Shown piece after piece: positions 2,701 to 39,309 of a stretch of 43,212 nt of DNA (positions are counted from its first letter, which is position 1; each line of letters begins with the position of its first letter). The DNA lies in the IMG/VR virus record IMGVR_UViG_3300045988_069579, positions 1-43,212 of that record; one strand, 5' to 3'. The notes under the pieces were generated by a model. That model was not told where the DNA came from. It was given only the letters and a program-made list of their open reading frames with translations, and searched no databases. The position numbers and the translations under genes were made by a program. The DNA comes from a virus.

Positions 2701-2860
2701 ATACATAGACAGGAACGCTTTCCTTTGGAATTATTGCAAGTATTGTGGAAAACGCATTGAAGTCGGTGAAAAGTGCTACGGTTTGCCGACGGGAGAAAGC
2801 GTTTGTGCAAGTTGTTGCGTTGAAGAAAATGAATTGCGGGAGGAGAATGACAATGGCTGA
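2693..2860 (+). CDS. Small Cys-rich protein starting MAEYIDR (55 aa)
   Basis: The ATG sits in a duplicated 21-nt junction. The sequence has CKYC ... CASCC motifs. It falls below the ORF-track cutoff. Confidence 0.5.
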   Translation: MAEYIDRNAFLWNYCKYCGKRIEVGEKCYGLPTGESVCASCCVEENELREENDNG

Positions 2861-3134
2861 ATACATAGATCGTGAAGCGCTGTTACATGACATCGAGCAA
2901 TCGGTGGTATACACGGTAAGAGAAAAAATAACGAGCGCAGAAATGCGAGGCGCTCACAAAGTTATCGAGCGCATTAAGTGTGCGCCTGCTGTCGAGCCTA
3001 TTTATATTCACGAACCGACAAAAAGCGAGTTTAAGCGCATGGCGGTACAGCAGGGCTATGCGCCGGCGGCGCATGGGCGGTGGGATGACATAGTGGGCAA
3101 GCGCTTGAATGGGAAAAATAAAAAGGAGGACTGA
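2853..3134 (+). CDS. Hypothetical protein starting MAEYIDR (93 aa), N-terminal paralogue of the previous ORF
   Basis: GGAGGAG sits 7 nt upstream of ATG 2853, in the same frame as track ORF 2745-3134. Confidence 0.55.
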   Translation: MAEYIDREALLHDIEQSVVYTVREKITSAEMRGAHKVIERIKCAPAVEPIYIHEPTKSEFKRMAVQQGYAPAAHGRWDDIVGKRLNGKNKKED

Positions 3135-11032: not shown

Positions 11033-11099
11033 ATCGCCTTAGTTTAACGGTAAAACGCTCGGAGAGATAGAGATGCAGGTTCGAGCCCTGCAGGCGGTA
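11033..11099 (+). ncRNA. tRNA-like element with degenerate anticodon arm (pseudo-tRNA?)
   Basis: There is a 7-bp acceptor stem (11033-39 with 11092-98). The D arm is gttt / aacggta / aaac with GG. The T arm is gcagg / ttcgagc / cctgc. Only 18 nt lie between the D and T arms, with at best a 3-bp stem, and no CCA is encoded. Confidence 0.35.
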
Positions 11100-18077: not shown

Positions 18078-21000
18078 ATGGCGAAGAAAATAAATCTTAC
18101 AAAAGAGCAGATAGAGGCAGCTGCAAAAGCAGGGCGCGAAAAGACCGAAAAAGCCTATGCCCAGAAAGCACAGGCAATCGCCAAGGGTTACGGCACAAAC
18201 AGTGCTAAATCCAAAGTTGGTAAGAATAGAGGACAATTGCCCGGAGTGAGCGAAGTTCTTGCTCGTAACAACCCTGCTTTCGCTGCTTTGCAGCAAGCCG
18301 GGAACGCTAAAAAGCTCACCAAGGGCAGCGACGCTATATCTTACGGCAAAAAAAGCAGCGAGCGCAAGCCGGGACAGATAAGCGCTTTGGGCGCAGGAGA
18401 TTACGGCGCGTCAAAAACAACGAGATTTGACGCTACGGCGAACGCTGCAATATACAGCACGGCAGGCGCATTTTCAAACCTTTTCGGTATGCTGAAAGAA
18501 AAGGACGCGCAGGCAAAAGCGCGAGATGCAGCGGACAGCGCAAGGCTTAAAGCCGGATATGACGCAATGCTCAACGGCGAGGACATAAACACGCGCGAGG
18601 GCGGTCTCAAGAAGCAGCATGAGGACAGCCAAAAGGCCTTTGAGCGCGGTTATGCAGCGCTTGCAGGAGCAGGACAAAAGAATTTTGACACCGCCGATGA
18701 GCTTGCCGCACGCTCGAATGAGTATCAGCAGATAGCAAAAGAGGGCTTAGGCAAGTTCGGACAGGGCGTTGTTGACTTCGGCATTGCAGGCTTGCAGTTT
18801 GCCGGTGACGCGGCTATGAACGCCATTCTCCCCGGCTCAGGTCTTGTGGCAATGGGAATGAGAGCGGCAGGAAGCGGAGCGCAGGAGGCAAGAAACAACG
18901 GCCTTGATATCAATGACCAGTTTACCTCTGGCCTCAAGAGCGCGGCAATCGAAGTGCTTACAGAGAAGCTTTTCGGCGCTGCTTCCAAAGTCGCATACGG
19001 CAAGGGCATTATCAGAAACGAGAGCCTTGTTAACGGTCTTGTAAACCGACTGGCAAAGACGGACAAAGGCCGCACGGCGCTCAAGGTCATTGTCGGCGCG
19101 AACGAAGAAGGCTTAGAGGAAGTCCTCTCGGATATCCTCAACCCTGTTGCAGACCGTGTGCTCAAGCTGGATGACGGCAAGGGCGATTGGTCTGACCTGG
19201 GCGAGGACATGGACGCAGAGCAGATGCTCGAGGACTACATCATCGGCAGCACTCTCGGCCTTTTCGGTGCAGGAACGAACGTTATAAGCGGTCAGTATCG
19301 CGCCGAGAACGCGCAGCAGAGAGCGTATGAAAATTATCAGCGCGAGCTTGTAAACGCCGGGATTGCATCCGAACAGGGTTCTCAGGCACAGTTGACCGCC
19401 GCAGAATATCAGAACATCCTTGACAACAGCGCAAAGAGAGGCAACAGAAACCTGAGCGACAAGGAAACAGCCAACCTTGAACAGCTTATAACGGCTGAGA
19501 GAGACACGCCGGCAGTGCGAAATGCTCTTGAGCGCAGCGGTACGCTTGTTGACGATAACACCGCGACGGTCATTGCCAAGGCTGCAAGCGGTCAAAAACT
19601 GACGAGAGCGGAGCAGAGCATCATAGACAGCAGCCCGGTAATGCAGCAGGCTGTGAATACCATGACCGGGAGCGGCGCTGTTGCTAACATCCGCACAATG
19701 GCGGCAAAGAACAGCGTTGTTAACAGCATGGCAGAGCGATATACGGTCTCCCCGGAGGTTATAAGCAGAACATACGATCTCGCCCCCGTCGAGTCTCCCG
19801 AGGCGTTTGAAATGGCGTTTGATGCTGTGTATCAGATGGGGCAGCAGGGCGCGAACAAAGAGTCGCTTATCAAAGTGCCCGTTCTGAACCGCGCACAGGC
19901 GGAGATAGCCTATAACATGGGTGCATCTACAACTCAGGCGGCGGTTGACAATGCGGCGGCGCAGGGTGATAATGTAAGCACACAGGTAAACAACCAGATA
20001 AACACACAGGAGGTAAACGAGAATGGAGTACGTCTACGCGACAGCGGCCAACGGCTTAACGGTCAGAATACCGAAGGACAAATACCCTCAGTGGAAAGAG
20101 GCACAGTCGAAGCTTACGCCGGAACAGATAGCGGCAGACAAAGCGGTTATAGCGCAGCTCAAGGCAAAACTGGGCAAAAAGTAGTCTATAACGGCGTAGA
20201 GCAGGAGAATGTCTACTACTCCGGCGAGGACACCGAGAGCATGAAAAAAGGCCGTGAGCTTGCAAGAAGCTACGGCTATAACGTCACATATTTCGAGGGC
20301 GGCAATATCAAGGACAGCGGCGGCGAGTTCAGAGGCATGGTCGATACCGAGAGCAAGACCGTTATGGTGCGCTCAGACCATCCCGACATATCCGCAGAGC
20401 AGATAATGCGCCACGAGATGGGGCATGCGGCGATAGCGCAGGGCGATATAAGCCTTGGCGAGCTGCGCAGTGCCATGCTTTCAGACCTCTCGGAGAAGGA
20501 GCTTAGCAGCGCTGTCGAGGTCTACAGGCACGCATACGGCGACACGATAAGCGAGGCTGAGGCGTTTGAGGAAATGTGCTGCGACGCGCTGGGCAAGATA
20601 AACATCTTTGCCGGAACGGAGCACGACAGCGCAAACTACGGCAAGGTACAGGAGAGTTTCCGCAAGCACACCGCCGAGACCGCGAACAAAGGCAGAGCGC
20701 CGCCGAAAGGTGGAGTGAGGTTTAGCCGTGCTCAGCGCGGCCGGAGCGTCGAGATTGAAACCATGGAAAACAACCGTTTTGAGCGGTTGCGACGTTTTGG
20801 TGATAACTTGCCAAAAATATGGTATGCCTATACATCTAAATACTTGTATGTATACGAGAACTACGGTAAGATGGATTATAGCATAAAGCGCCGGATAACG
20901 TTGAACGATAACAATCTCACAAATACGGTAGTGAAGGAGATTAATAATGGAACTTACGGAACTGCAAAGGCTTTTGATACATGGCATGAAAGTCTGCAAA

Positions 21001-24000
21001 CTCGAACAAGACGATATAGTAACCGCCATAATAATGCTGGACACGGAAGAAAAACAGTGGGAAGCGGCAGATTATCTAAAAACAGTGGTACACAATCCGC
21101 CAAAAGCGCCGGAGATATTCAAAGAGATAGCGGAGATAACCATGTAAAGAAAAAATTCTCTATGGAAGCACCCATAGAGGAAAAGAAAAATCTTATAGCG
21201 TTGCACAACCTTGATGAAACAAAGCTTTTGAAAACGCTGAAACTCGGCGGCTTCCCGATGCCGTCAATCGCGATAACAAAGAGCGATATCCCACACACAA
21301 ATTTCGGTAATATTACCATTGTGTTCGGAAAAGAAACAATAGACCCGGAATTTGACCGTCGCAACACGGTATATTCTGCCGATGCGTGGACACCTTTGGT
21401 CCCGCGCGTTGAGTATGAAGCAAATCCAAAAGCTGAAAAAAGAATACGCGATAAGTATTACGAGCTTTTAAGAAAGTACGGTAATGATTTTGCAAGGCCT
21501 CTATACGAGTCGGCAAACTATCTAAGCGATACGCTCACCAAAAACGGCGGTGTTGAAGGTATGGTAGAAAAATTCGCCGATGATACGAGAATGATGCAAG
21601 TATATCTCGCCGACACTGGCAAGAAACCCATTGAAGCTGTAAAAACTGAAACTGTTACGCGGCTTGCAGATAATCAAATCGAAGAGTACGATGCGCTTAT
21701 AAATACTCTCGGGGCGGATGTTCTCAACGAAATGACAGCAAAATCAAATCAGGCTCCATTTGCGGCGAGAAAAGAATGGCTTGCAAAACACGGAGAAGAT
21801 TTGAAATCGGCGTTTGAACAGTATTTAATTAAAAACGGAATAGACGCTGATACGGCAAGGTCTGTGGTTGGAGATATGAAGCCTGCATCACTTCTTAATG
21901 AGGCGATTGCGGCGCGTAAGTATATGAATAACGGAGCAGAAACACGCAGAATCGAGGTTGACACGGATGCTACTAACAAAGCAATAAAGGCTGCGGTTAA
22001 CTCTGATGAGTACATGAAGTGGCTCAAAGACTTGTATGGCAACTCAGTCAAGGATAGCGGCGTTTACAACAACAAGGACTATTATACTCCAAGTGGGAAT
22101 ATGAGAAGCTTTAAGGCTACGCATTTCCCGAATACTCTTGATGGAATAGTCAAGGCCATGACTTCGCAGGGAGACGGTAATTCTCGAAATGTTATGGGAT
22201 TTCACGGAACGAAAAGCCTTAGAGCAACTACGGCGGAGCGTTTTAAAAGTATAGAGGATATGCACAAGCTTGAAGGCCGGTTAAAGCATCTTACAGAGGA
22301 AGAAGCAGCTGAAATAAATGATGCACTTGATAACCGCCTGTCTGAGCTTATGCATAGTGTATATGAACTTGTTCCTCACGATAGCAGCTCCAATGAGTTA
22401 ATCGAACTCGATACTTTAGGCGAAATATTCATAGAAGCAGCGGGACTAAAGTATAAAAGTCCTGCTAATGTTAAATCATTGTTCAAAAAATACAATTATC
22501 CTTTGACTGACAAAATGGCAAACGATATTGTTGCGCTTCTGTATGATATAAACAATATGCCTGTAAACATGTTCGAGGCCAAGCCGGAACGAGCGGTCGG
22601 ATTCGATGAGATACGCAAGGTCATTATTCCTGACACGTCATCGGATACACTGCGCGTGGCGCTTAAAGATGCAGGGATAAATAACGTCGAAGAATACAAA
22701 GCCGGAGACGATGCAGCACGAATGAAGATCGCAAATGACGTGCCGGATGCGCATTTTTCCCGAGAGCCGGAGAGCATTACCGAGCTGCGGCGGCAGAACG
22801 AAACTATGCTTGCTCAGGCGACAAACGAGGACGCGGCAAACGAGAACGAGCGCGGCCTTATAAAGGACTATAAGCGCCAGTATGACAAGGTCAGCGGCAT
22901 TGCCGAAAAGCTTAACACGGCACGTCAGGAAGTGCTAACGGCAGAGAACGGCGGAGACAAAAACGCCATAGCGACAGCCCGAAATCGTTTTACCCTGCTT
23001 AGCAGAAAGTACGCAGAGGAACACAGAAAACTCAGCGATTATGTCAATATCAAGGCTTTGGACAATGTCCTTACGAGGGTAAAGGATAGAACGGCAGAAA
23101 ACCCGCTGCCCGAAGGCATGGGCGCGGCTTCGGCAGAGTTCACGGGCGAGGAAACAAGAGGCGAGCGCTGGGTAACTGAGGCTCAGGGCAAGGGCAACAA
23201 CGCGCTGCATCCGATAAGCCGAGAGCAGGAAGCAAACCTTGCCGAGCAGCAGCACAGAGCGCCGCAGGAGATACCCAAGGAAGATCTGAACGGCAAGCTC
23301 ACGAGCAAGCATGTTTCCACACTCGCAAACAGCGGCGTTACCCCGGCAGAGTTTTCCGACGCACTACGCGAGGACGCGGCACAGGGTAAGTTCTCACACA
23401 TAGCCTATTCCGACGAGGCAGCGCTCAAAAAAGCCGAGATCACGATAGAGGCTAACGGCTGGGAACAGGCGCTTGCCGATTACAAGGCACAGATAAATGC
23501 CGGTAAGGTATCGAAGGACAATACCGTTATGGGCATTGCCCTATACAACAATGCCGTCAACAGCGGAGATTATGCAACCGCGCTGGATATTGCCTCACTT
23601 ATGGTGAAGAACTCAACGAACACGGCGCAGTCTTTGCAGGCGATGCGCATACTCAACAAGCTCTCTCCCGAATGCAAACTGTATCTTGCCGCAAAGTCCG
23701 TTGAGACTATAGAGGAAGACCTTAACGAGAAATACAAGGGCAACAAAGCGGATATACACGTTGACAAGGTGCTGTATGACGAGTACGGTAAAGCACTCAG
23801 AAGCGGCGACGAGTACGGCATAAAGACCGCATGGGCGAAAATCGAGCAGAGCGTAGCACAACAGATAGACGCGACATGGTATGAAAAGCTCAACAATTTC
23901 AGATACCTCGCTATGCTGGGCAATCCTCGTACACATGTCAGAAACATCGTGGGCAACGCATTTTTCGTGCCAGTCAGGGCAGTCAAAAACACCATAGCAT

Positions 24001-25724
24001 ACGGCCTTGAAAATGTCGCCGACAGCAAAGTAAACGGAGGCATAGAGCGCAGCAAAGCCATGCTCAACCGCAATAACGCAAATGACGTGGCACTTATAAA
24101 ATATGCAATGACCGATTATGAAGCGGTGCAGGAGACTATACTCTCGGGCGGCAAGTATGTCGATACATTCCAGGGTATAGACAAGAAAAGGACGATTTAC
24201 AAAACCAAAATCCTTGAGGCGGCACGCAAGGGCAATTCAAACCTGCTTGACGCGGAGGACGCATGGTTTTGTAAACCTGCATACGCCAACGCGCTCGCGA
24301 AATGGTACAAGGCAAACGGCATAACCGCCGAACAGCTCAACACCGGCAAGGTACCCGAAAGCACGATAATAAAAGCTCAGACCGTTGCGATAAAGGAAGC
24401 CCAGAAAGCGACTTACCGCGACACAAACAGATTTTCGGCAATGGTCAGCAGGCTCGGCAAGGTCGATAACAAGATCGCTTCCGCGCTAATAGAGGGCGTT
24501 TTGCCGTTCAAAAAAACACCGGCAAACATACTCGTGAGAGCGGTGGAATACTCGCCCGTAGGGCTTATAAAGTCGCTCGCCGTTGATACAAAGAAAGTCA
24601 AGGCGTATGTAAACGGCGATGTAGAAAACGGAATGTCACCGGCACAGTTTATCGACGACGTTTCCGCCGGGCTGACTGGCACTGCGCTTGTCGGCTTGGG
24701 TGTTCTTCTGGCATCGTGGGGATTATTCAGCGGTAGCCCCGGAGACGACGATAAACAAAACAAGTTTGACGAGCTGGGCGGAAGTCAAAACTATGCGCTT
24801 AACATAGGCGGTCTAAGCATCACGCTTGACTGGCTCGCGCCGGAAAGCATGCCGCTATTCGTGGGCGTTGAACTGTATAATTCGCTCAGCGGCAAAAGCG
24901 AGGATAACGGCTTTGTTCAGAACCTTATGAGTTCCGTCATGAGCCTCAGTACGCCCATGTTTGAAATGTCAATGCTTCAAAGCGTCAACGATCTGTTTGA
25001 TAACCTTGCCTACATAAAGCAAGGACAGGGTTCGTTCAAAATCGTAACGAGCATGGCGACAAACTACATATCACAGTATTTCCCGACGCTGTTCGGGCAG
25101 GCCGAAAGAGCGTTTGGAGAAAATCAGCGAGAAACAACGTATATTGACCGCAACAGCAATGTCGGCTCTGAGCTGCAATATATGTGGGGCAAGATCGCCA
25201 ACAAGATACCGCTTTATGATTTCAGTCAGATACCGTACATTGACGCATGGGGACGTACAGAGGAAACCGGCAACCTGTTTGAGAGGGTGCTCAACAACTT
25301 TGTAAATCCGGCATACGTCAAGAAGGAGCGCAGCACCGAGATAGACGGCGAACTTAAACGGCTTTATGATCTGGGCGAAACCTCCGTATATCCCAGCCGC
25401 GCGAAAACAAACACAAAAATCAACGGCGAATATCTGACGGCTGAGGAATATGTGAAGTATGCAACAGTTAAGGGGCGAACCTCTTATGATCTGGCAACGA
25501 AGATAATAAACAGCAGCACATATTCTCGCGCATCCGATGCCGAAAAGGCATACATGCTCAGTTATGTATACAAGTACGCAGACCATATCGCTAAGTACGA
25601 AGTCAATAACGAGAGCAGCCTTGCGAAATGGGAAGCAGCAGCCTATAAGAGTTCAAACCCGGCGCAGGGGATAATCGACCATGCGCAGGAATATTATAAG
25701 CGCAAAGAGGACGACGAAAGTTAA
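18078..25724 (+). CDS. Giant polyvalent virion protein (2548 aa) with HExxH metallopeptidase motif and C-terminal membrane segment
   Basis: One uninterrupted ORF. HEMGH lies at 20412-20426, and a hydrophobic helix (GLTGTALVGLGVLLASWGLF) lies near 24670-24730. No tape-measure, tube or sheath gene occurs elsewhere. Confidence 0.8.
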   Translation: MAKKINLTKEQIEAAAKAGREKTEKAYAQKAQAIAKGYGTNSAKSKVGKNRGQLPGVSEVLARNNPAFAALQQAGNAKKLTKGSDAISYGKKSSERKPGQISALGAGDYGASKTTRFDATANAAIYSTAGAFSNLFGMLKEKDAQAKARDAADSARLKAGYDAMLNGEDINTREGGLKKQHEDSQKAFERGYAALAGAGQKNFDTADELAARSNEYQQIAKEGLGKFGQGVVDFGIAGLQFAGDAAMNAILPGSGLVAMGMRAAGSGAQEARNNGLDINDQFTSGLKSAAIEVLTEKLFGAASKVAYGKGIIRNESLVNGLVNRLAKTDKGRTALKVIVGANEEGLEEVLSDILNPVADRVLKLDDGKGDWSDLGEDMDAEQMLEDYIIGSTLGLFGAGTNVISGQYRAENAQQRAYENYQRELVNAGIASEQGSQAQLTAAEYQNILDNSAKRGNRNLSDKETANLEQLITAERDTPAVRNALERSGTLVDDNTATVIAKAASGQKLTRAEQSIIDSSPVMQQAVNTMTGSGAVANIRTMAAKNSVVNSMAERYTVSPEVISRTYDLAPVESPEAFEMAFDAVYQMGQQGANKESLIKVPVLNRAQAEIAYNMGASTTQAAVDNAAAQGDNVSTQVNNQINTQEVNENGVRLRDSGQRLNGQNTEGQIPSVERGTVEAYAGTDSGRQSGYSAAQGKTGQKVVYNGVEQENVYYSGEDTESMKKGRELARSYGYNVTYFEGGNIKDSGGEFRGMVDTESKTVMVRSDHPDISAEQIMRHEMGHAAIAQGDISLGELRSAMLSDLSEKELSSAVEVYRHAYGDTISEAEAFEEMCCDALGKINIFAGTEHDSANYGKVQESFRKHTAETANKGRAPPKGGVRFSRAQRGRSVEIETMENNRFERLRRFGDNLPKIWYAYTSKYLYVYENYGKMDYSIKRRITLNDNNLTNTVVKEINNGTYGTAKAFDTWHESLQTRTRRYSNRHNNAGHGRKTVGSGRLSKNSGTQSAKSAGDIQRDSGDNHVKKKFSMEAPIEEKKNLIALHNLDETKLLKTLKLGGFPMPSIAITKSDIPHTNFGNITIVFGKETIDPEFDRRNTVYSADAWTPLVPRVEYEANPKAEKRIRDKYYELLRKYGNDFARPLYESANYLSDTLTKNGGVEGMVEKFADDTRMMQVYLADTGKKPIEAVKTETVTRLADNQIEEYDALINTLGADVLNEMTAKSNQAPFAARKEWLAKHGEDLKSAFEQYLIKNGIDADTARSVVGDMKPASLLNEAIAARKYMNNGAETRRIEVDTDATNKAIKAAVNSDEYMKWLKDLYGNSVKDSGVYNNKDYYTPSGNMRSFKATHFPNTLDGIVKAMTSQGDGNSRNVMGFHGTKSLRATTAERFKSIEDMHKLEGRLKHLTEEEAAEINDALDNRLSELMHSVYELVPHDSSSNELIELDTLGEIFIEAAGLKYKSPANVKSLFKKYNYPLTDKMANDIVALLYDINNMPVNMFEAKPERAVGFDEIRKVIIPDTSSDTLRVALKDAGINNVEEYKAGDDAARMKIANDVPDAHFSREPESITELRRQNETMLAQATNEDAANENERGLIKDYKRQYDKVSGIAEKLNTARQEVLTAENGGDKNAIATARNRFTLLSRKYAEEHRKLSDYVNIKALDNVLTRVKDRTAENPLPEGMGAASAEFTGEETRGERWVTEAQGKGNNALHPISREQEANLAEQQHRAPQEIPKEDLNGKLTSKHVSTLANSGVTPAEFSDALREDAAQGKFSHIAYSDEAALKKAEITIEANGWEQALADYKAQINAGKVSKDNTVMGIALYNNAVNSGDYATALDIASLMVKNSTNTAQSLQAMRILNKLSPECKLYLAAKSVETIEEDLNEKYKGNKADIHVDKVLYDEYGKALRSGDEYGIKTAWAKIEQSVAQQIDATWYEKLNNFRYLAMLGNPRTHVRNIVGNAFFVPVRAVKNTIAYGLENVADSKVNGGIERSKAMLNRNNANDVALIKYAMTDYEAVQETILSGGKYVDTFQGIDKKRTIYKTKILEAARKGNSNLLDAEDAWFCKPAYANALAKWYKANGITAEQLNTGKVPESTIIKAQTVAIKEAQKATYRDTNRFSAMVSRLGKVDNKIASALIEGVLPFKKTPANILVRAVEYSPVGLIKSLAVDTKKVKAYVNGDVENGMSPAQFIDDVSAGLTGTALVGLGVLLASWGLFSGSPGDDDKQNKFDELGGSQNYALNIGGLSITLDWLAPESMPLFVGVELYNSLSGKSEDNGFVQNLMSSVMSLSTPMFEMSMLQSVNDLFDNLAYIKQGQGSFKIVTSMATNYISQYFPTLFGQAERAFGENQRETTYIDRNSNVGSELQYMWGKIANKIPLYDFSQIPYIDAWGRTEETGNLFERVLNNFVNPAYVKKERSTEIDGELKRLYDLGETSVYPSRAKTNTKINGEYLTAEEYVKYATVKGRTSYDLATKIINSSTYSRASDAEKAYMLSYVYKYADHIAKYEVNNESSLAKWEAAAYKSSNPAQGIIDHAQEYYKRKEDDES
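20947..21147 (+). CDS. Nested +1-frame ORF (66 aa) inside the giant gene
   Basis: AAGGAG (20934-39) sits 7 nt upstream of ATG 20947. The product MELTELQRLLIHGMKVCKLEQDDIVTAIIMLDTEEKQWEAADYLK... looks like a folded helical protein. The host frame here is G/S/R/K/T/N-rich low complexity. Confidence 0.45.
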   Translation: MELTELQRLLIHGMKVCKLEQDDIVTAIIMLDTEEKQWEAADYLKTVVHNPPKAPEIFKEIAEITM

Positions 25725-29315: not shown

Positions 29316-29518
29316 CTTGTGACCGGCATTAATGCCGTTTGCAATACTGCCCCCTGCCGTTCGGGGACTTATAAATAGGCGGCTTGAAAAAAGAAAACTG
29401 CGGCGGCTCAGTTTAGATAGACAGCACAAGCCCCAAAAAAGAATAGCTATCCTTGAAGATTTACAACCGCCACAAATTGAAGAACATCTCGTAGGGCGCG
29501 AGATGGGTAAAATAAAAA

Positions 29519-30256
29519 ATGCCCACCGAGATGATAAAGGACGGTGATTTTTCAACCATGAACATTACCCCAAAACAGGTGCTCACACTTGCGGCAAAGT
29601 ACATAGGCTATAAGGAAAAGGCATCGGACAAGGACTTATACAGCTTTGAAGGCAATGCCGGGCGAGGCAACTTCACGATGTTTCAGGCCGAGCTTGACAA
29701 GGCGAAGTTCTGGAACACGCCAAAGAACGGCTATGAATGGTGCACAAGCTTTATAGCGTGGTGCTTCTGGCGCATTGCCGGGAGCGAGGCAAAGGATATT
29801 CTGTGCCTTACCGGGCCATACGGCGCAAGCTGCGTGAGCTGGGCGAAGTATTACGCAGGACAGGCGAGGCTTTTCACCAAGCCGCAGGTGGGCGACCAGT
29901 ATTTTCAGCGCGACAGCCGCGACGGGCTTCCCTGCCACACGGGCATTGTCGAAAGCGTAAACGGCAACACGTTCGTTACCATAGAGGGCAACTACGGCAA
30001 CGCCGTGCAGCGCGTTACCCGGTATCTCGGCAGCACGGTCTACGGCTTTGGCAGACCGAAATATACAGCAGAAAGCGAGGATGAAGAAATGGTCAGATGG
30101 AACAAAATCGAGGATGTGCCGGAGGGCTTTTACCGCGACACCGTCAGGCAGCTTATGCACGACGGCATAATCAAGGGCAAGGGCGACGGCGTGGTTGACC
30201 TGACCGAGGACATGCTAAGGACGATAATTTTTTGCGAGAGGATAATTAAAAAATAA
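29519..30256 (+). CDS. Endolysin, CHAP-domain peptidoglycan hydrolase
   Basis: GYEWCTSFIAWCF carries the catalytic Cys and CHTGIVESV...TIEGN carries the His, matching the CHAP pattern. The true start may be ATG 29558 (MNITPKQVLTLAAKYIGYKEK). No start has a clear SD. Confidence 0.8.
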   Translation: MPTEMIKDGDFSTMNITPKQVLTLAAKYIGYKEKASDKDLYSFEGNAGRGNFTMFQAELDKAKFWNTPKNGYEWCTSFIAWCFWRIAGSEAKDILCLTGPYGASCVSWAKYYAGQARLFTKPQVGDQYFQRDSRDGLPCHTGIVESVNGNTFVTIEGNYGNAVQRVTRYLGSTVYGFGRPKYTAESEDEEMVRWNKIEDVPEGFYRDTVRQLMHDGIIKGKGDGVVDLTEDMLRTIIFCERIIKK

Positions 30257-34255: not shown

Positions 34256-35371
34256 TCAATCTTGCTTGGGTAAATTGTCGTAAAAATCGCGCATTGCATT
34301 TTCTGCGTGGCCTATGTCCTGTGCAGACAAATGCGTGTAAATTTTACGCATCGTCGCATAGTCTGACCAGCCGCCTATTTGCATTGCGGCCTGTTCGCTC
34401 ATGCGAACATGGTATGCCAACGAAGCAAACGAATGGCGCAAGCCGTGAACGCCAAGCTTCGGCAAGCCGTTAGCAGCGCAAATATCATTGACCCAATCAT
34501 ATACTGTGGAAATGTAGCATGTTACGATCTTGCCGTGCTTATTTTTAACAGCCGTCAAAGCGTCATAAAGCTCCGGTATCATAATAGGTATTGTTCGTGT
34601 CGATGTGGCGTTCTTGTTGGACGGCTTCTCAACAAGTGTCCAATTTTCTCCTGGGACTACTGCACCCGACACTTTTATAGTGCGCTTATCCAAATCAACA
34701 TTTGACCAATCAAGCGCGGCGATCTCTGAGCGCCTGAGCGAATGCAAGCCGAGCAACGCAGCTATCTCGACAGGCGTTCCCTCGACGGCTGCGATAAAGA
34801 CATGTATCTGCTCCGGCGTAAGAAAAACCGGGTCTTTAGGCACAATTTGCGGCAGGGTAAGTCTGGGCAGCTCCACACCGGCGGATTTAATGGCCGGTGA
34901 CACAAGCCCCCATGCGTTCTTAAGCGTCTTAGGGGCGCACACGAGCGCTTCTGCGTTAATCACCGCTTGCCAGTCCTTTATATCAGAAAGCGGTTTTGCC
35001 ATTACGGCCTTAAAGCGGTTCTTTTTCACGGAGCCGTAACCGGCAAGGGTTGACGGTGACAGAACGTTCCGGCGATTTTCAATATAATTATCTATCGCTT
35101 CGGCAAGTGTCAAGTCCGTTTTCTTTTGAGTCTTAACAAACCCGGCTCTTATAGCAATCGCCTTGGCCTTGGCTTCGGCTTCGGTGTCCTCAATGACGGT
35201 TACGCCCTCGCGGCGTAGGTCAACATACCATCTCTGCCCACGCTTGCGCGGCGTGGGTATTTTTATCTCGTCTTTCTTCTTGCGCTCGCGGACAAGGCGC
35301 TCACCGCAGTAGCCGCAGAACGTAAAATGCAGCTCATCGGGCAATTCGGCTTTGCAATTTCGGCACTTCAT
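34256..35371 (-). CDS. int: Tyrosine integrase with N-terminal zinc ribbon
   Basis: HGLRHSFASLAY ... GGWSDYATMRKIYTHL carries the R..H..R..Y catalytic pattern. The N-terminus CRNC...CGYCG is a zinc ribbon. The gene is adjacent to the attP-like region. Confidence 0.9.
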   Translation of the reverse strand: MKCRNCKAELPDELHFTFCGYCGERLVRERKKKDEIKIPTPRKRGQRWYVDLRREGVTVIEDTEAEAKAKAIAIRAGFVKTQKKTDLTLAEAIDNYIENRRNVLSPSTLAGYGSVKKNRFKAVMAKPLSDIKDWQAVINAEALVCAPKTLKNAWGLVSPAIKSAGVELPRLTLPQIVPKDPVFLTPEQIHVFIAAVEGTPVEIAALLGLHSLRRSEIAALDWSNVDLDKRTIKVSGAVVPGENWTLVEKPSNKNATSTRTIPIMIPELYDALTAVKNKHGKIVTCYISTVYDWVNDICAANGLPKLGVHGLRHSFASLAYHVRMSEQAAMQIGGWSDYATMRKIYTHLSAQDIGHAENAMRDFYDNLPKQD

Positions 35372-37589: not shown

Positions 37590-38058
37590 CCTCGTTGTAG
37601 TCGAATGCGTCATCAAGACTTGAAAGCTCTTCTTCCGATATGTAGTTAAGCAGAGCGCGGCGATATCTGTTAGCAAGCAATTTGCTGTCGCGTAGAGCTT
37701 GAATATACATTGATTTGTAATGCGATCCGAGCGCAATGTTTATAATAAGCAGTGCGAGAACTACTACTAAATCCCAATTGATATAACCAAGCACATAGCG
37801 TGACACGAATATTGGGATATAATACGCCGCCCAGCTTACAAAACGAGCAGAGTCTCCGGCTTCGGGATATTCTTTAGAGGCGATAATACTCATAAAGGCA
37901 GGTATGCCGAAAGCTAAATAAATCGTCTTTACAGCTTCCCAAATATCGTGCGTAATCAATGCGAAAATCGCAGAAATAACTATGAGCACAATATTTGCAA
38001 TTGCGAAACTGCGCCAGTGAGGATGCTTATCAAAAAACGCTTTAATCGTCTTTTTCAT
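37579..38058 (-). CDS. Multi-pass membrane protein co-transcribed with the repressor
   Basis: It has about four hydrophobic helices. It overlaps the 3' end of the repressor gene by 17 nt. Confidence 0.6.
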   Translation of the reverse strand: MKKTIKAFFDKHPHWRSFAIANIVLIVISAIFALITHDIWEAVKTIYLAFGIPAFMSIIASKEYPEAGDSARFVSWAAYYIPIFVSRYVLGYINWDLVVVLALLIINIALGSHYKSMYIQALRDSKLLANRYRRALLNYISEEELSSLDDAFDYNEVKK

Positions 38059-38401
38059 TTTGCATTACCTGAAACTCAATATAGTTCATAATGTTGCTGA
38101 CCTGCTGCAAGCTGAGATCGGGGCATGATCTCAGCACCGCTTCTCGCAGCTCCCACATAGCATCGTTTTTACCAAGCTCTTCATCCTTAGGGATGGAGGG
38201 CTGTTTTTTTATGCCGTTTTTCAGCTCATCGACCGTTATGCCAAAGTAATTGGCGATTTTGAGTGCGGTTGCGTCGGTTGCGCCATTTTTCCGGCGTTTC
38301 CAGTTGCTCACGGTAGCTTTAGATATGCCAAGTTTGAGCGCAACTGCCGACGGTTTTTCACCTACGGAATTACATAATTCAAGAAAGTTGTCATAAAACA
38401 C
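38042..38401 (-). CDS. XRE/CI-like repressor
   Basis: PSAVALKLGISKATVSNWKRRKN is an HTH. The gene is divergent from the early promoter. There is no in-frame ATG, so the start is GTG 38401 or TTG 38455 (the track start). Confidence 0.7.
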   Translation of the reverse strand: MFYDNFLELCNSVGEKPSAVALKLGISKATVSNWKRRKNGATDATALKIANYFGITVDELKNGIKKQPSIPKDEELGKNDAMWELREAVLRSCPDLSLQQVSNIMNYIEFQVMQNEKDD

Positions 38402-38547
38402 AAAAGTACACCGCCGTTTCTGTGCAAAACGCCCAAAGTCAAGAAAGTTAACCAAAATTATTGACTTTCAAGAAAGTAAACGCTATAATCATAAATGTGG
38501 TCGCGAAAGTACACAAAGCTAACGCAAGCAGTCAAGAAAATCAAGAG
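38379..38547. promoter_or_regulatory. Operator-like repeats TCAAGAAA(G/A)T (4 copies)
   Basis: Copies start at 38379, 38439, 38468 and 38532. The 38468 copy is part of the 14-bp palindrome ACTTTCAAGAAAGT (38464-38477), which lies in the promoter spacer. Confidence 0.6.
38461..38489 (+). promoter_or_regulatory. Consensus sigma-A/sigma-70 early promoter
   Basis: TTGACT (38461-66), a 17-nt spacer, then TATAAT (38484-89). It points toward the early operon. Confidence 0.8.
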
Positions 38548-38656
38548 ATTTTGGCTGCTCCGATGTTTGTTCTAATAGTGGCATATTGATAATAACACAG
38601 CTTGTGAACTTTTGCAACTGTTTTGTAAAAAGTTTTCGTAGGAATACGAAAACACC

Positions 38657-39054
38657 TCGCATCTTCGTTTGAAATAGGAGCGCCGCAGGACACGGGCGCA
38701 CGGGCAACATAAAGTTTATTAGTCGTTGAAGAAAACCGGCAATTCGCTCAATCACCGGTTTCCTTCGCTCTTAGCTCTCAGCACAGCGCAGGCGGATCGT
38801 TTCGCACGTTTATTGCTCTGCGGCAAAAGGATAGCGGCTCCCCCACCGCCACTCGGAGCGATCGAGTTGCTTAGCTGTGCCTCAGTGTTTGGACGCACGC
38901 GTCACGTCGGGGTCAGACTCCCGAACGACACACTGAATTATGAGAACGTCGGCAGGGTTTCATGAAGGAGCCGAAAAGACTTTCCATGAAAACACCCCCT
39001 TTCGGCCTGCAAGCAAGATATACCGCGGCGCTCTTATTTTAAACGAAGATGTGA
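38657..39054 (+). ncRNA. 398-nt element closed by a 30-bp helix / inverted repeat (structured RNA, invertible switch or MITE-like insert)
   Basis: 38657-38686 pairs with 39025-39054 at 27 Watson-Crick positions plus 3 G-U pairs (G-U only on the + strand). There is no credible ORF. The interior is about 56% GC and the upstream leader about 36%, both by hand count. Confidence 0.5.
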
Positions 39055-39087
39055 ACAAAATCAACAACTGTGAAAGGAGAAAACAGT

Positions 39088-39309
39088 ATGCGCGAAAAGT
39101 GGACAGGCGATCTGGTCGGAAGAATGCACAACGCCGAGATAAAGAACGTTGACCTTGCGCGAGAGCTGGGAGTCGGCAAAAGCTACATAAGCATGATACT
39201 CAACGGCGAGAAAGCTCCCAAGAACGCAGAGGCAAGACTCAACGCGGCGTTTTATGCGGTGCTCAATCGCAAGCTGGAGGAAGAGAAGCATGCCAAGAAC
39301 AAGGTTTGA
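39088..39309 (+). CDS. Cro-like / XRE HTH protein, first early gene
   Basis: AAAGGAGAAAACAGT precedes ATG 39088. VDLARELGVGKSYISMILNGEK is an HTH. Confidence 0.65.
   Translation: MREKWTGDLVGRMHNAEIKNVDLARELGVGKSYISMILNGEKAPKNAEARLNAAFYAVLNRKLEEEKHAKNKV

Follow-up and report, generated by a model that had tools for sequence, protein, structure and literature searches.

The stretch of viral DNA considered here, positions 1 to 43,212 of IMG/VR record IMGVR_UViG_3300045988_069579 (43,212 nt in all, hereafter the window), belongs to a temperate siphovirus from the human gut, and its genetic switch contains an element at about 38631-39071, within the leader of the early operon, that is the subject of this analysis. 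The switch begins with a gene for a CI-like helix-turn-helix (HTH) repressor (38042-38455, minus strand), next to which lies a rightward early promoter of the P_R type (38461-38489, plus strand; TTGACT-17-TATAAT). An original prediction, made from the letters of the sequence, had pointed to this promoter and to a first early gene at ATG 39088, and both assignments hold: the promoter matches 11 of the 12 consensus positions and opens a 592-nt leader that holds the element, and the gene (39088-39309, plus strand), with AAGGAG ahead of it, encodes a 73-aa XRE/Cro-like HTH protein (HTH_3). A second HTH gene and then a Gp157 gene follow downstream, and a tyrosine integrase gene (34256-35371, minus strand) is found 3 kb from the element. 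With moderate confidence, and on the strength of sequence features, we interpret the element as an optional cargo cassette that would specify a leftward, structured RNA of ~300 nt antisense to the early leader, and whose terminal inverted repeats (the arms) would pair only in the rightward leader.

Opposing the rightward promoter is a promoter-like box on the minus strand (38589-38617; TTGCAA-17-TGtTATTAT, with an extended -10 TG), which probably serves as the lysogenic promoter that drives the repressor. The two sites lie face-to-face about 100 bp apart, in a layout of the P2/186 type. The -35 and spacer of the leftward site fall in a box, TTGTGAACTTTTGCAAC (38603-38619), which forms the left border of the site that holds the cargo, and this minus-strand box is conserved among phages with differing repressors. 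An equivalent rightward promoter (11-12 of 12 positions) is present in L103, L106, L138 and L141, where L-numbers denote related phage contigs or loci fetched for comparison. Around the rightward promoter of the window, an operator-like motif, TCAAGAAA(G/A)T, occurs four times within 38381-38541, with starts near 38381, 38439, 38468 and 38532. L006 shares this set of motifs, while in L002, L004 and L005 the element is preceded by another set, indicating that two immunity types have been joined to one early module at ~38586; the conserved block starts there regardless of which of the two lies upstream.

The clearest strand-specific signals of the element are on the minus strand, that is, antisense to the leader. 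A predicted leftward promoter (P_as, 39036-39064, minus strand; TTGATT-17-TAAAAT) would start transcription near 39029, and the same scanning tool calls leftward promoters in four further lineages, L103 (TTGACA-17-TAAAAT), L106 (TTGACT-17-TACAAT), L138 (TTGACT-17-TATTCT) and L141 (TTGACT-17-TATGCT). The -35 starts 24 nt upstream of the Cro-like ATG in the window and 26-28 nt upstream of it in the other four; the -10 hexamers differ, all of them fitting TAnnnT at 17-nt spacing, and three of the five have an extended -10 TG. A very strong Shine-Dalgarno (SD)-like sequence (AAAGGGGGTG, 38993-39002, minus strand) follows some 30-35 nt after the point where the leftward RNA is predicted to begin. 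This SD, which reads AAGGAGGTG in L141, is followed on the minus strand by ATG or TTG after 4-7 nt, and is conserved in L098, L103, L106, L138/142 and L141 despite unrelated bodies in all but L098. The original prediction held that no open reading frame (ORF) in the leader has an SD, which overlooked the minus strand: the SD at 39002-38993, a 5-nt spacer and an ATG at 38987-38985 introduce an ORF of 24 codons (38913-38987, minus strand; peptide MESLFGSFMKPCRRSHNSVCRSGV).

At the far end of the predicted unit, 38728-38766 can fold on the minus strand into a 17-bp stem without mismatches, capped by a pentaloop and with UUUUCUUC behind it. The hairpin reaches -24.0 kcal/mol on the minus strand (z = -5.4) versus -13.8 kcal/mol on the plus strand, and its homolog in L098 reaches -25.5 versus -14.5 kcal/mol despite five differing stem positions, the stem being kept through compensatory and wobble changes. 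The greater stability on the minus strand, together with the UUUUCUUC tract, leads us to assign it as a minus-strand intrinsic terminator, and equivalent minus-strand terminators are recognised in L138, L141 and L106. Outside the left arm, the small hairpin described in the original prediction (38633-38652) exists as part of a 9-bp structure at 38627-38653 (-9.4 kcal/mol) with a GGAA loop on the plus strand and TTTTT behind it on the minus strand. Energy modelling suggests that this hairpin (38653-38632) and its TTTTT form a second, weak terminator-like site for minus-strand transcripts, perhaps a back-up; it is absent in L098, and in L172 a 68-aa ORF takes its place. By consensus and energy, the element thus appears to have its own promoter and its own terminator on the same strand, as would be expected of an independent small RNA or cis-antisense unit. 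A common layout is displayed by six diverged lineages, in which a minus-strand promoter, a strong SD with a start codon, a folded body and a terminator hairpin with a U tract are bracketed by arms, the right one overlapping the promoter spacer and the left one adjoining the terminator. Two deletion derivatives (L117 and L164) retain the left arm and the terminator alone.

The cassette is optional and occupies a hot-spot for cargo: related contigs show a long form, three different forms of internal deletion, different cargo in its place and empty sites. The same phage is found at 93-99% identity in human-gut virome and metagenome contigs, and these relatives provide a series of natural variants at the site. 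The long form seen in the window is shared by L001, L030 and L174, whereas a short form (L004-6, L033, L034, L173 and L175-177) lacks exactly 38730-38953, a dispensable central domain of 224 nt whose loss leaves the junction AGTCGTTG/AGGGTTTC. A third form, L172, lacks ~38766-38879 and has the 68-aa plus-strand ORF instead of the outer hairpin. In L003 and L170/171/178 the element is absent, with other cargo at the site, even though the Cro-like gene is 99% identical. In more distant phages the box TTGTGAACTTTTGCAAC is followed directly by the ribosome-binding site, giving empty leaders (L017/L102, L011/L163, L104 and L140), by other genes (L008/L009), or by non-coding inserts that differ from the cassette and measure 250-400 nt (L103, the ~30 contigs of the L106 group, L138/142/144/145 and L141). 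The 68-aa ORF (MSDKKLKEALDEM…, with a hydrophobic C-terminus) recurs as an alternative cargo in L172 (1964-2170, plus strand), L003, L009 and L170, and in L172 it adjoins the partly deleted copy of the element.

The most informative relative is L098, which was found by tblastx and is ~80% identical over the body, the 224-nt segment included. Since L098 carries this segment, the long form is probably the ancestral one, from which the short forms arose by deletion. In L098 the left arm lacks its outer 18 bp, and neither the outer hairpin nor 38687-38727 is present. Between the body of the window and those of L106, L138 and L141, nhmmer finds a match in the SD/start region only (0.6 bits), from which we conclude that these are analogous cassettes rather than members of one RNA family.

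As originally proposed, 27 of the 30 positions of the left arm (38657-38686) find their complement in the right arm (39025-39054); the arms enclose 338 nt, and no further copy of the arm sequence occurs in the window (chance expectation 0). The left arm has variants among relatives at 38675 and 38677 and is represented in L098 by its inner 12 bp only; the right arm overlaps the spacer, -10 and start region of the leftward promoter. It had been claimed that all three mismatches place G opposite T on the plus strand. This is true of the window and of L001 but is not a general rule, because 38675 is C in seven relatives, giving C-A on the plus strand and G-U on the minus strand. The pairing itself is maintained across lineages by compensatory changes (GC/UA, GC/CG and CG/GC), and covariation can be followed inside the L106 population, where nine T:A and nine C:G pairs are accompanied by the intermediates T:G, C:A and A:G. 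In L098 the arms are 12 bp long (TGAGGATGCCGC/GCGGCATTCTCA) and their differences from the window arms are complementary. Over the lineages the arms range from 10 to 30 bp, those of the sister lineages being 10-16 bp, and their wobble pairs weakly favour the plus strand (about 6-7 events versus 2-3).

In the window, L098 and L106 the right arm coincides with promoter DNA of the predicted leftward unit and the main terminator precedes the left arm, so that only the rightward leader would contain both arms. What adjoins the left arm on its outer side in L108 and L144 is unrelated DNA, and the arms therefore coincide with a module boundary there. Upstream of ~1618 in L108, the left arm of an L106-type cassette adjoins not the switch region but an ORF that resembles the C-terminus of a GIY-YIG nuclease (…EYNTTDPRYGYNIRDEH…), a resemblance that suggests a possible link to module exchange driven by homing endonucleases. 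In L103 (L007) each end of the inverted repeat takes in promoter-like -35/-10 sequences. On either side of the insert in the window lies a 7-nt direct repeat, CAACTGT (38615-38621 and 39066-39072); it is inconsistent with the empty-site sequence as a target-site duplication and may be due to chance.

The interior was originally singled out as GC-rich, which it is (54%) relative to the upstream leader of the AT-rich switch region (34-39%) but not relative to the neighbouring genes, whose GC content it equals (52-60%). Folding of the whole element gives z = -6.4 on the plus strand and -6.0 on the minus strand, the former value being due to the repeat and the flanking hairpin. Three of the helices listed in the original prediction (38733-39/38755-61, 38781-87/38874-80 and 38882-88/38930-36) are present in the minimum-free-energy fold, with compensatory or wobble changes of the homolog in or beside them, while the second helix of the suggested pseudoknot (38970-76/39000-06) is broken in L098 and weakened on the plus strand of L001.

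Covariation in a related phage, which the original prediction had named as a check, was assessed by predicting the structure from the window alone, mapping the 59 substitutions of L098 onto it and comparing the outcome with 2000 permutations. Eight pairs show double compensatory changes versus 1.7 expected, a number matched in none of the 2000 permutations, and 13 pairs are broken versus 20.9 expected (P = 0.002). Seven of the eight lie in the folded body (38767-38953), at 38776/38945, 38779/38942, 38780/38941, 38796/38862, 38814/38825, 38815/38824 and 38886/38932, and the eighth (38742/38752) sits in the terminator stem; the helices so supported include 38776-80/38941-45, 38796/38862, 38814-15/38824-25, 38886/38932 and 38742/38752. 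Although it is not thermodynamically exceptional, the interior is a constrained fold, because the compensatory changes of L098 exceed chance. Compensatory pairs beyond chance, the general mark of a structured RNA, are thus seen in both the arms and the body. The consensus fold is more stable on the minus strand (-108 kcal/mol) than on the plus strand (-86 kcal/mol), and single-sequence z-scores are better on the minus strand in four of five lineages.

The anatomy of the cassette, its conservation, its covariation and its optional nature are observed; in the mechanism that we propose below, transcription, the strand used in vivo and the regulatory effect are what we infer from them. Situated between the face-to-face promoters of the switch and the ribosome-binding site of the Cro-like gene, the cassette would be transcribed leftward from the promoter at 39064-39036, starting near 39029 and ending at 38766-38728, with the weaker site at 38653-38632 as a back-up. 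The product would be a structured RNA of ~300 nt (~39029 to ~38728) that is fully complementary to the rightward early leader. Convergent transcription and antisense pairing could then weaken early lytic expression or set its timing. The strong SD would stabilise the 5' end or load ribosomes rather than serve a functional peptide; this role is the more likely one because the peptide behind the SD is not conserved. In the rightward leader, long-range pairing of the arms would create a helix with everything between them looped out, and this helix may be one of the RNase III-processed type or may insulate the early leader. The looping-out or RNase III role, proposed by analogy, is the least secure step.

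Several considerations weigh against this interpretation. No arm helix is possible in the leftward RNA as predicted, and the role of the arms therefore needs a second, separate assumption. The promoter, the terminator and the RNA ends are consensus predictions. Once stripped of its arms, the interior has an ordinary stability (z = -0.08 on the plus strand and -1.2 on the minus strand), the covariation of the body depends on a single diverged homolog, L098, and the eight compensatory pairs come from the plus-strand structure of the window, the minimum-free-energy fold of the minus strand carrying three. Wobble changes in the body are silent as to the strand, with seven compatible only with the plus strand and eight only with the minus strand. 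Finally, the frequent deletion forms could mean that the element is decaying rather than functional. More speculatively still, and with considerable doubt, the cassettes might represent a new class of "self-insulating" antisense-RNA units in the switch of gut Firmicute phages, combining a leftward promoter, an SD as 5' stabiliser, a structured RNA, a terminator and co-evolving repeats. The arm helix in the early transcript would loop out or excise the insert in the manner of the intervening sequences of ribosomal RNA (rRNA), so that unrelated RNA cargoes could be swapped in the slot without breaking early-gene expression, thereby tuning the choice between lysis and lysogeny.

Perhaps the most obvious rival to the antisense cassette is a cis-regulatory domain of the plus-strand leader, closed by the 30-bp helix, which would control stability, RNase III processing or read-through into the Cro-like gene and would make the minus-strand signals incidental. 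That both arms are present in the rightward transcript only, that their pairing is kept by compensatory changes with wobble pairs that are mostly G-U on the plus strand, and that it is the plus-strand fold of the window that holds the eight compensatory pairs with fewer broken ones than expected all speak for such a domain. We nevertheless regard it as possible but rather unlikely, given that the hairpin at 38728-38766 is ~10 kcal/mol weaker on the plus strand in both homologs, that the plus-strand body has the near-zero z-score given above, and that the minus-strand promoter, SD and terminator are positionally conserved where the bodies are unrelated. Furthermore, the body can be deleted, is absent from sister phages with the same early genes and matches no Rfam family. 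The two accounts are not fully exclusive, because an antisense RNA and its target have mirror-image folds. The original prediction had offered a large structured RNA or leader domain as its first reading, and part of this survives, in that the closing helix and several interior helices keep compensatory changes; the loss of 224 nt in many near-identical phages and a body that is not homologous across sister lineages do not fit the kind of RNA it had in mind. If instead the leftward unit served the short ORF behind the SD, as a small-protein moron, the strong SD and the correctly spaced start codon of all lineages would find a ready explanation. In L103 (L007 coordinates 2769-2900, minus strand) the analogous cassette has a good SD and a very basic 36-aa ORF, MAETCKPKRREPMTVKVKRYQRNGKPAKAHRRHTPR, which stops just ahead of a hairpin, and a small protein is possible there. 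For the window it is unlikely, and as a general account of the cassettes quite unlikely: the peptides of other lineages vary in length (18-36 aa) and sequence, and a hand count from the aligned sequences of the window and L098 gives three synonymous and seven non-synonymous changes and then a frameshift. In addition, the frame of the short form continues through the terminator and the next promoter, and most of the RNA, with covarying helices, is 3' of the stop codon. On the plus strand, the ORF at 38726-38965 is disrupted by a 1-nt indel in a C run, and overall the cassette appears to contain no conserved protein-coding ORF. The idea of a gene remnant was also rejected, tblastx against all fetched loci having given nucleotide-level homologs only (L098), with matches in all frames.

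Two further readings concern the DNA rather than its transcripts, and both had been raised in the original prediction. A mobile element, similar to a miniature inverted-repeat transposable element (MITE) or a cassette, with the arms as recombination or transposition ends, would account for the presence or absence of the element among close relatives, for terminal repeats that form module boundaries in L108 and L144 and, if the resemblance is real, for the GIY-YIG-like ORF beside the left arm in L108. In exact-pattern scans of viral contigs, metagenomes and GTDB genomes with arm and body sequences, from which diverged copies could escape, no copy was found outside this one site in this phage group, and single-arm matches elsewhere are due to chance, without further similarity. 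Set against the empty leaders L017/L102 and L011, the site has a few bases replaced and no target-site duplication. The arms vary in sequence between lineages and yet remain complementary, which is more readily explained by selection for pairing than by a single transposase recognising them, and a mobile element is accordingly very improbable. Less probable still is a DNA switch that inverts in the manner of cwpV/fimS and whose orientation would gate the early genes. Inverted repeats do flank a segment that contains part of a promoter and a terminator, this segment lies in a 5' leader, and the tyrosine integrase gene is 3 kb away; but all 54 of the 54 gene-oriented loci with a body share one orientation in the assemblies, and all other copies are colinear with their flanks. 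The placement of terminators relative to the arms also varies, the window having an extra terminator-like hairpin outside the left arm while its main terminator is inside the arms, as in L106 and L098.

Searches for known families or described equivalents of the cassette returned little. At the gathering threshold, Rfam 15 gives no match in the region and, for the whole window, only the 6A RNA and a tRNA-like match elsewhere; with E-values of up to 10, the interval 38400-39200 yields four chance-level matches (13.8-16 bits), none of them to the ROOL, GOLLD, raiA or HEARO families considered in the original prediction. No match to the leader was obtained by blastn against the GenBank phage collection, and a search for trans targets inside the phage gave only chance-level short matches. 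The literature search found nothing specific, only work on the convergent promoters of phage 186. Terminase database matches are confined to uncultured human-faecal phage records, at no more than 58% identity.

Some features of the window lie far from the switch. The 6A RNA motif is matched over its full length at 29481-29531 (plus strand; 50.9 bits, gathering score 41.2) in the late/lysis region. Between structural genes, 11033-11099 (plus strand) matches the Rfam tRNA model (45.9 bits, gathering score 29) while ARAGORN finds no tRNA in the window, and this may be a tRNA-like structure or a degenerate tRNA. The first 364 nt contain 13.5 copies of a 27-nt tandem repeat (90% match; unit ACTCCGCGCAGATAGGCAGCTCAGGCG), which also matches the end of contig L001 in several registers and could represent iterons or an in-frame 9-aa repeat. 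The tail region includes an unusually long ORF of 2548 aa (18078-25724, plus strand).

To our knowledge, hardly any work has addressed the control of lysis and lysogeny in phages that infect the dominant Firmicutes of the human gut. Should the antisense RNA be made, the repressor/Cro switch would gain a further layer of control by an exchangeable RNA, and there would be a concrete, testable reason why near-identical prophages might differ in ease of induction. Co-evolving terminal repeats around sequence-unrelated cargoes are an unusual modular design, which could be the reason why an essential leader tolerates non-coding "morons" within it, and the natural long, short and empty variants constitute a ready-made deletion series. 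The modular, repeat-bounded design and the sequence family are not described in Rfam or in the literature searched, while the kind of control, by phage cis-antisense RNA and convergent promoters, is already known.

Compared with established element types, the cassette displays individual features of several. Like ROOL, GOLLD, HEARO and raiA it is non-coding, a few hundred nucleotides long, prophage-encoded and folded, but it matches no covariance model even at permissive thresholds, and its body is smaller, can be lost in part and is not shared by the sister lineages. It has flanking inverted repeats like the cwpV/fimS invertons but a single orientation in the assemblies, and exact-pattern scans and the comparison with empty leaders show neither the multiple-site copies nor the target-site duplications of MITEs. 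The RNAs of diversity-generating retroelements and retrons were rejected as candidates, there being nothing in the element that is repeated elsewhere in the window and no reverse transcriptase among the neighbours, which are HTH proteins, Gp157 and the integrase. A type I toxin-antitoxin system was likewise rejected: the peptides of the cassette ORFs (e.g., MESLFGSFMKPCRRSHNSVCRSGV) are neither hydrophobic helices nor conserved, and no short hydrophobic membrane-peptide toxin is found among them.

Closer parallels exist for the individual parts. STAB-SD sequences of the cryIIIA type are 5' stabilisers of mRNA in Gram-positive bacteria, and the cassette resembles them in its near-perfect SD near the predicted RNA 5' end ahead of an ORF that is not conserved. 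In contrast to a STAB-SD, however, every lineage has a properly spaced start codon, so that the short ORF may really be translated. For the arms, the relevant comparison is with the intervening sequences of 23S rRNA, the early sites of T7 and sib of lambda, which are helices of the kind that RNase III cuts, removing or insulating the insert. Here, too, the ends of the insert would pair into a long helix, and the 30 bp of the window would suffice for a substrate, although the 10-16 bp of the sister lineages are short for RNase III; unlike rRNA intervening sequences, the insert carries a predicted antisense transcription unit.

In coliphages 186 and P2, lytic and lysogenic promoters lie face-to-face and are subject to transcriptional interference (PMC5001618 for 186). 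The promoters predicted here are similarly convergent, with the P_R-like promoter at 38461-89 opposed by leftward sites at 38617-38589 and 39064-39036, so that RNA polymerase interference is a plausible mode of action. Unlike the situation in 186 and P2, the predicted cassette promoter would be a third one, added ~570 bp downstream of P_R. It would have its own terminator and would therefore belong to a separate module rather than be the repressor promoter itself.

Close analogues are OOP of lambda, which acts against cII, and sar of P22, which acts against ant, both of them cis-antisense RNAs of phage switch regions with a length of roughly 70 nt. As with these, the prediction is of a short leftward RNA, transcribed from a promoter of its own up to its own intrinsic terminator, which is encoded inside the early rightward transcript and is fully complementary to it, and by analogy a lower expression of the target and the action of RNase III on the duplex would be expected. 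We know of no sequence relationship between the cassette RNA and OOP or sar. In contrast to both, the predicted RNA is ~300 nt long and internally folded, overlaps the untranslated leader only, with no coding region or ribosome-binding site, and is carried by a cassette that is optional and bounded by inverted repeats.

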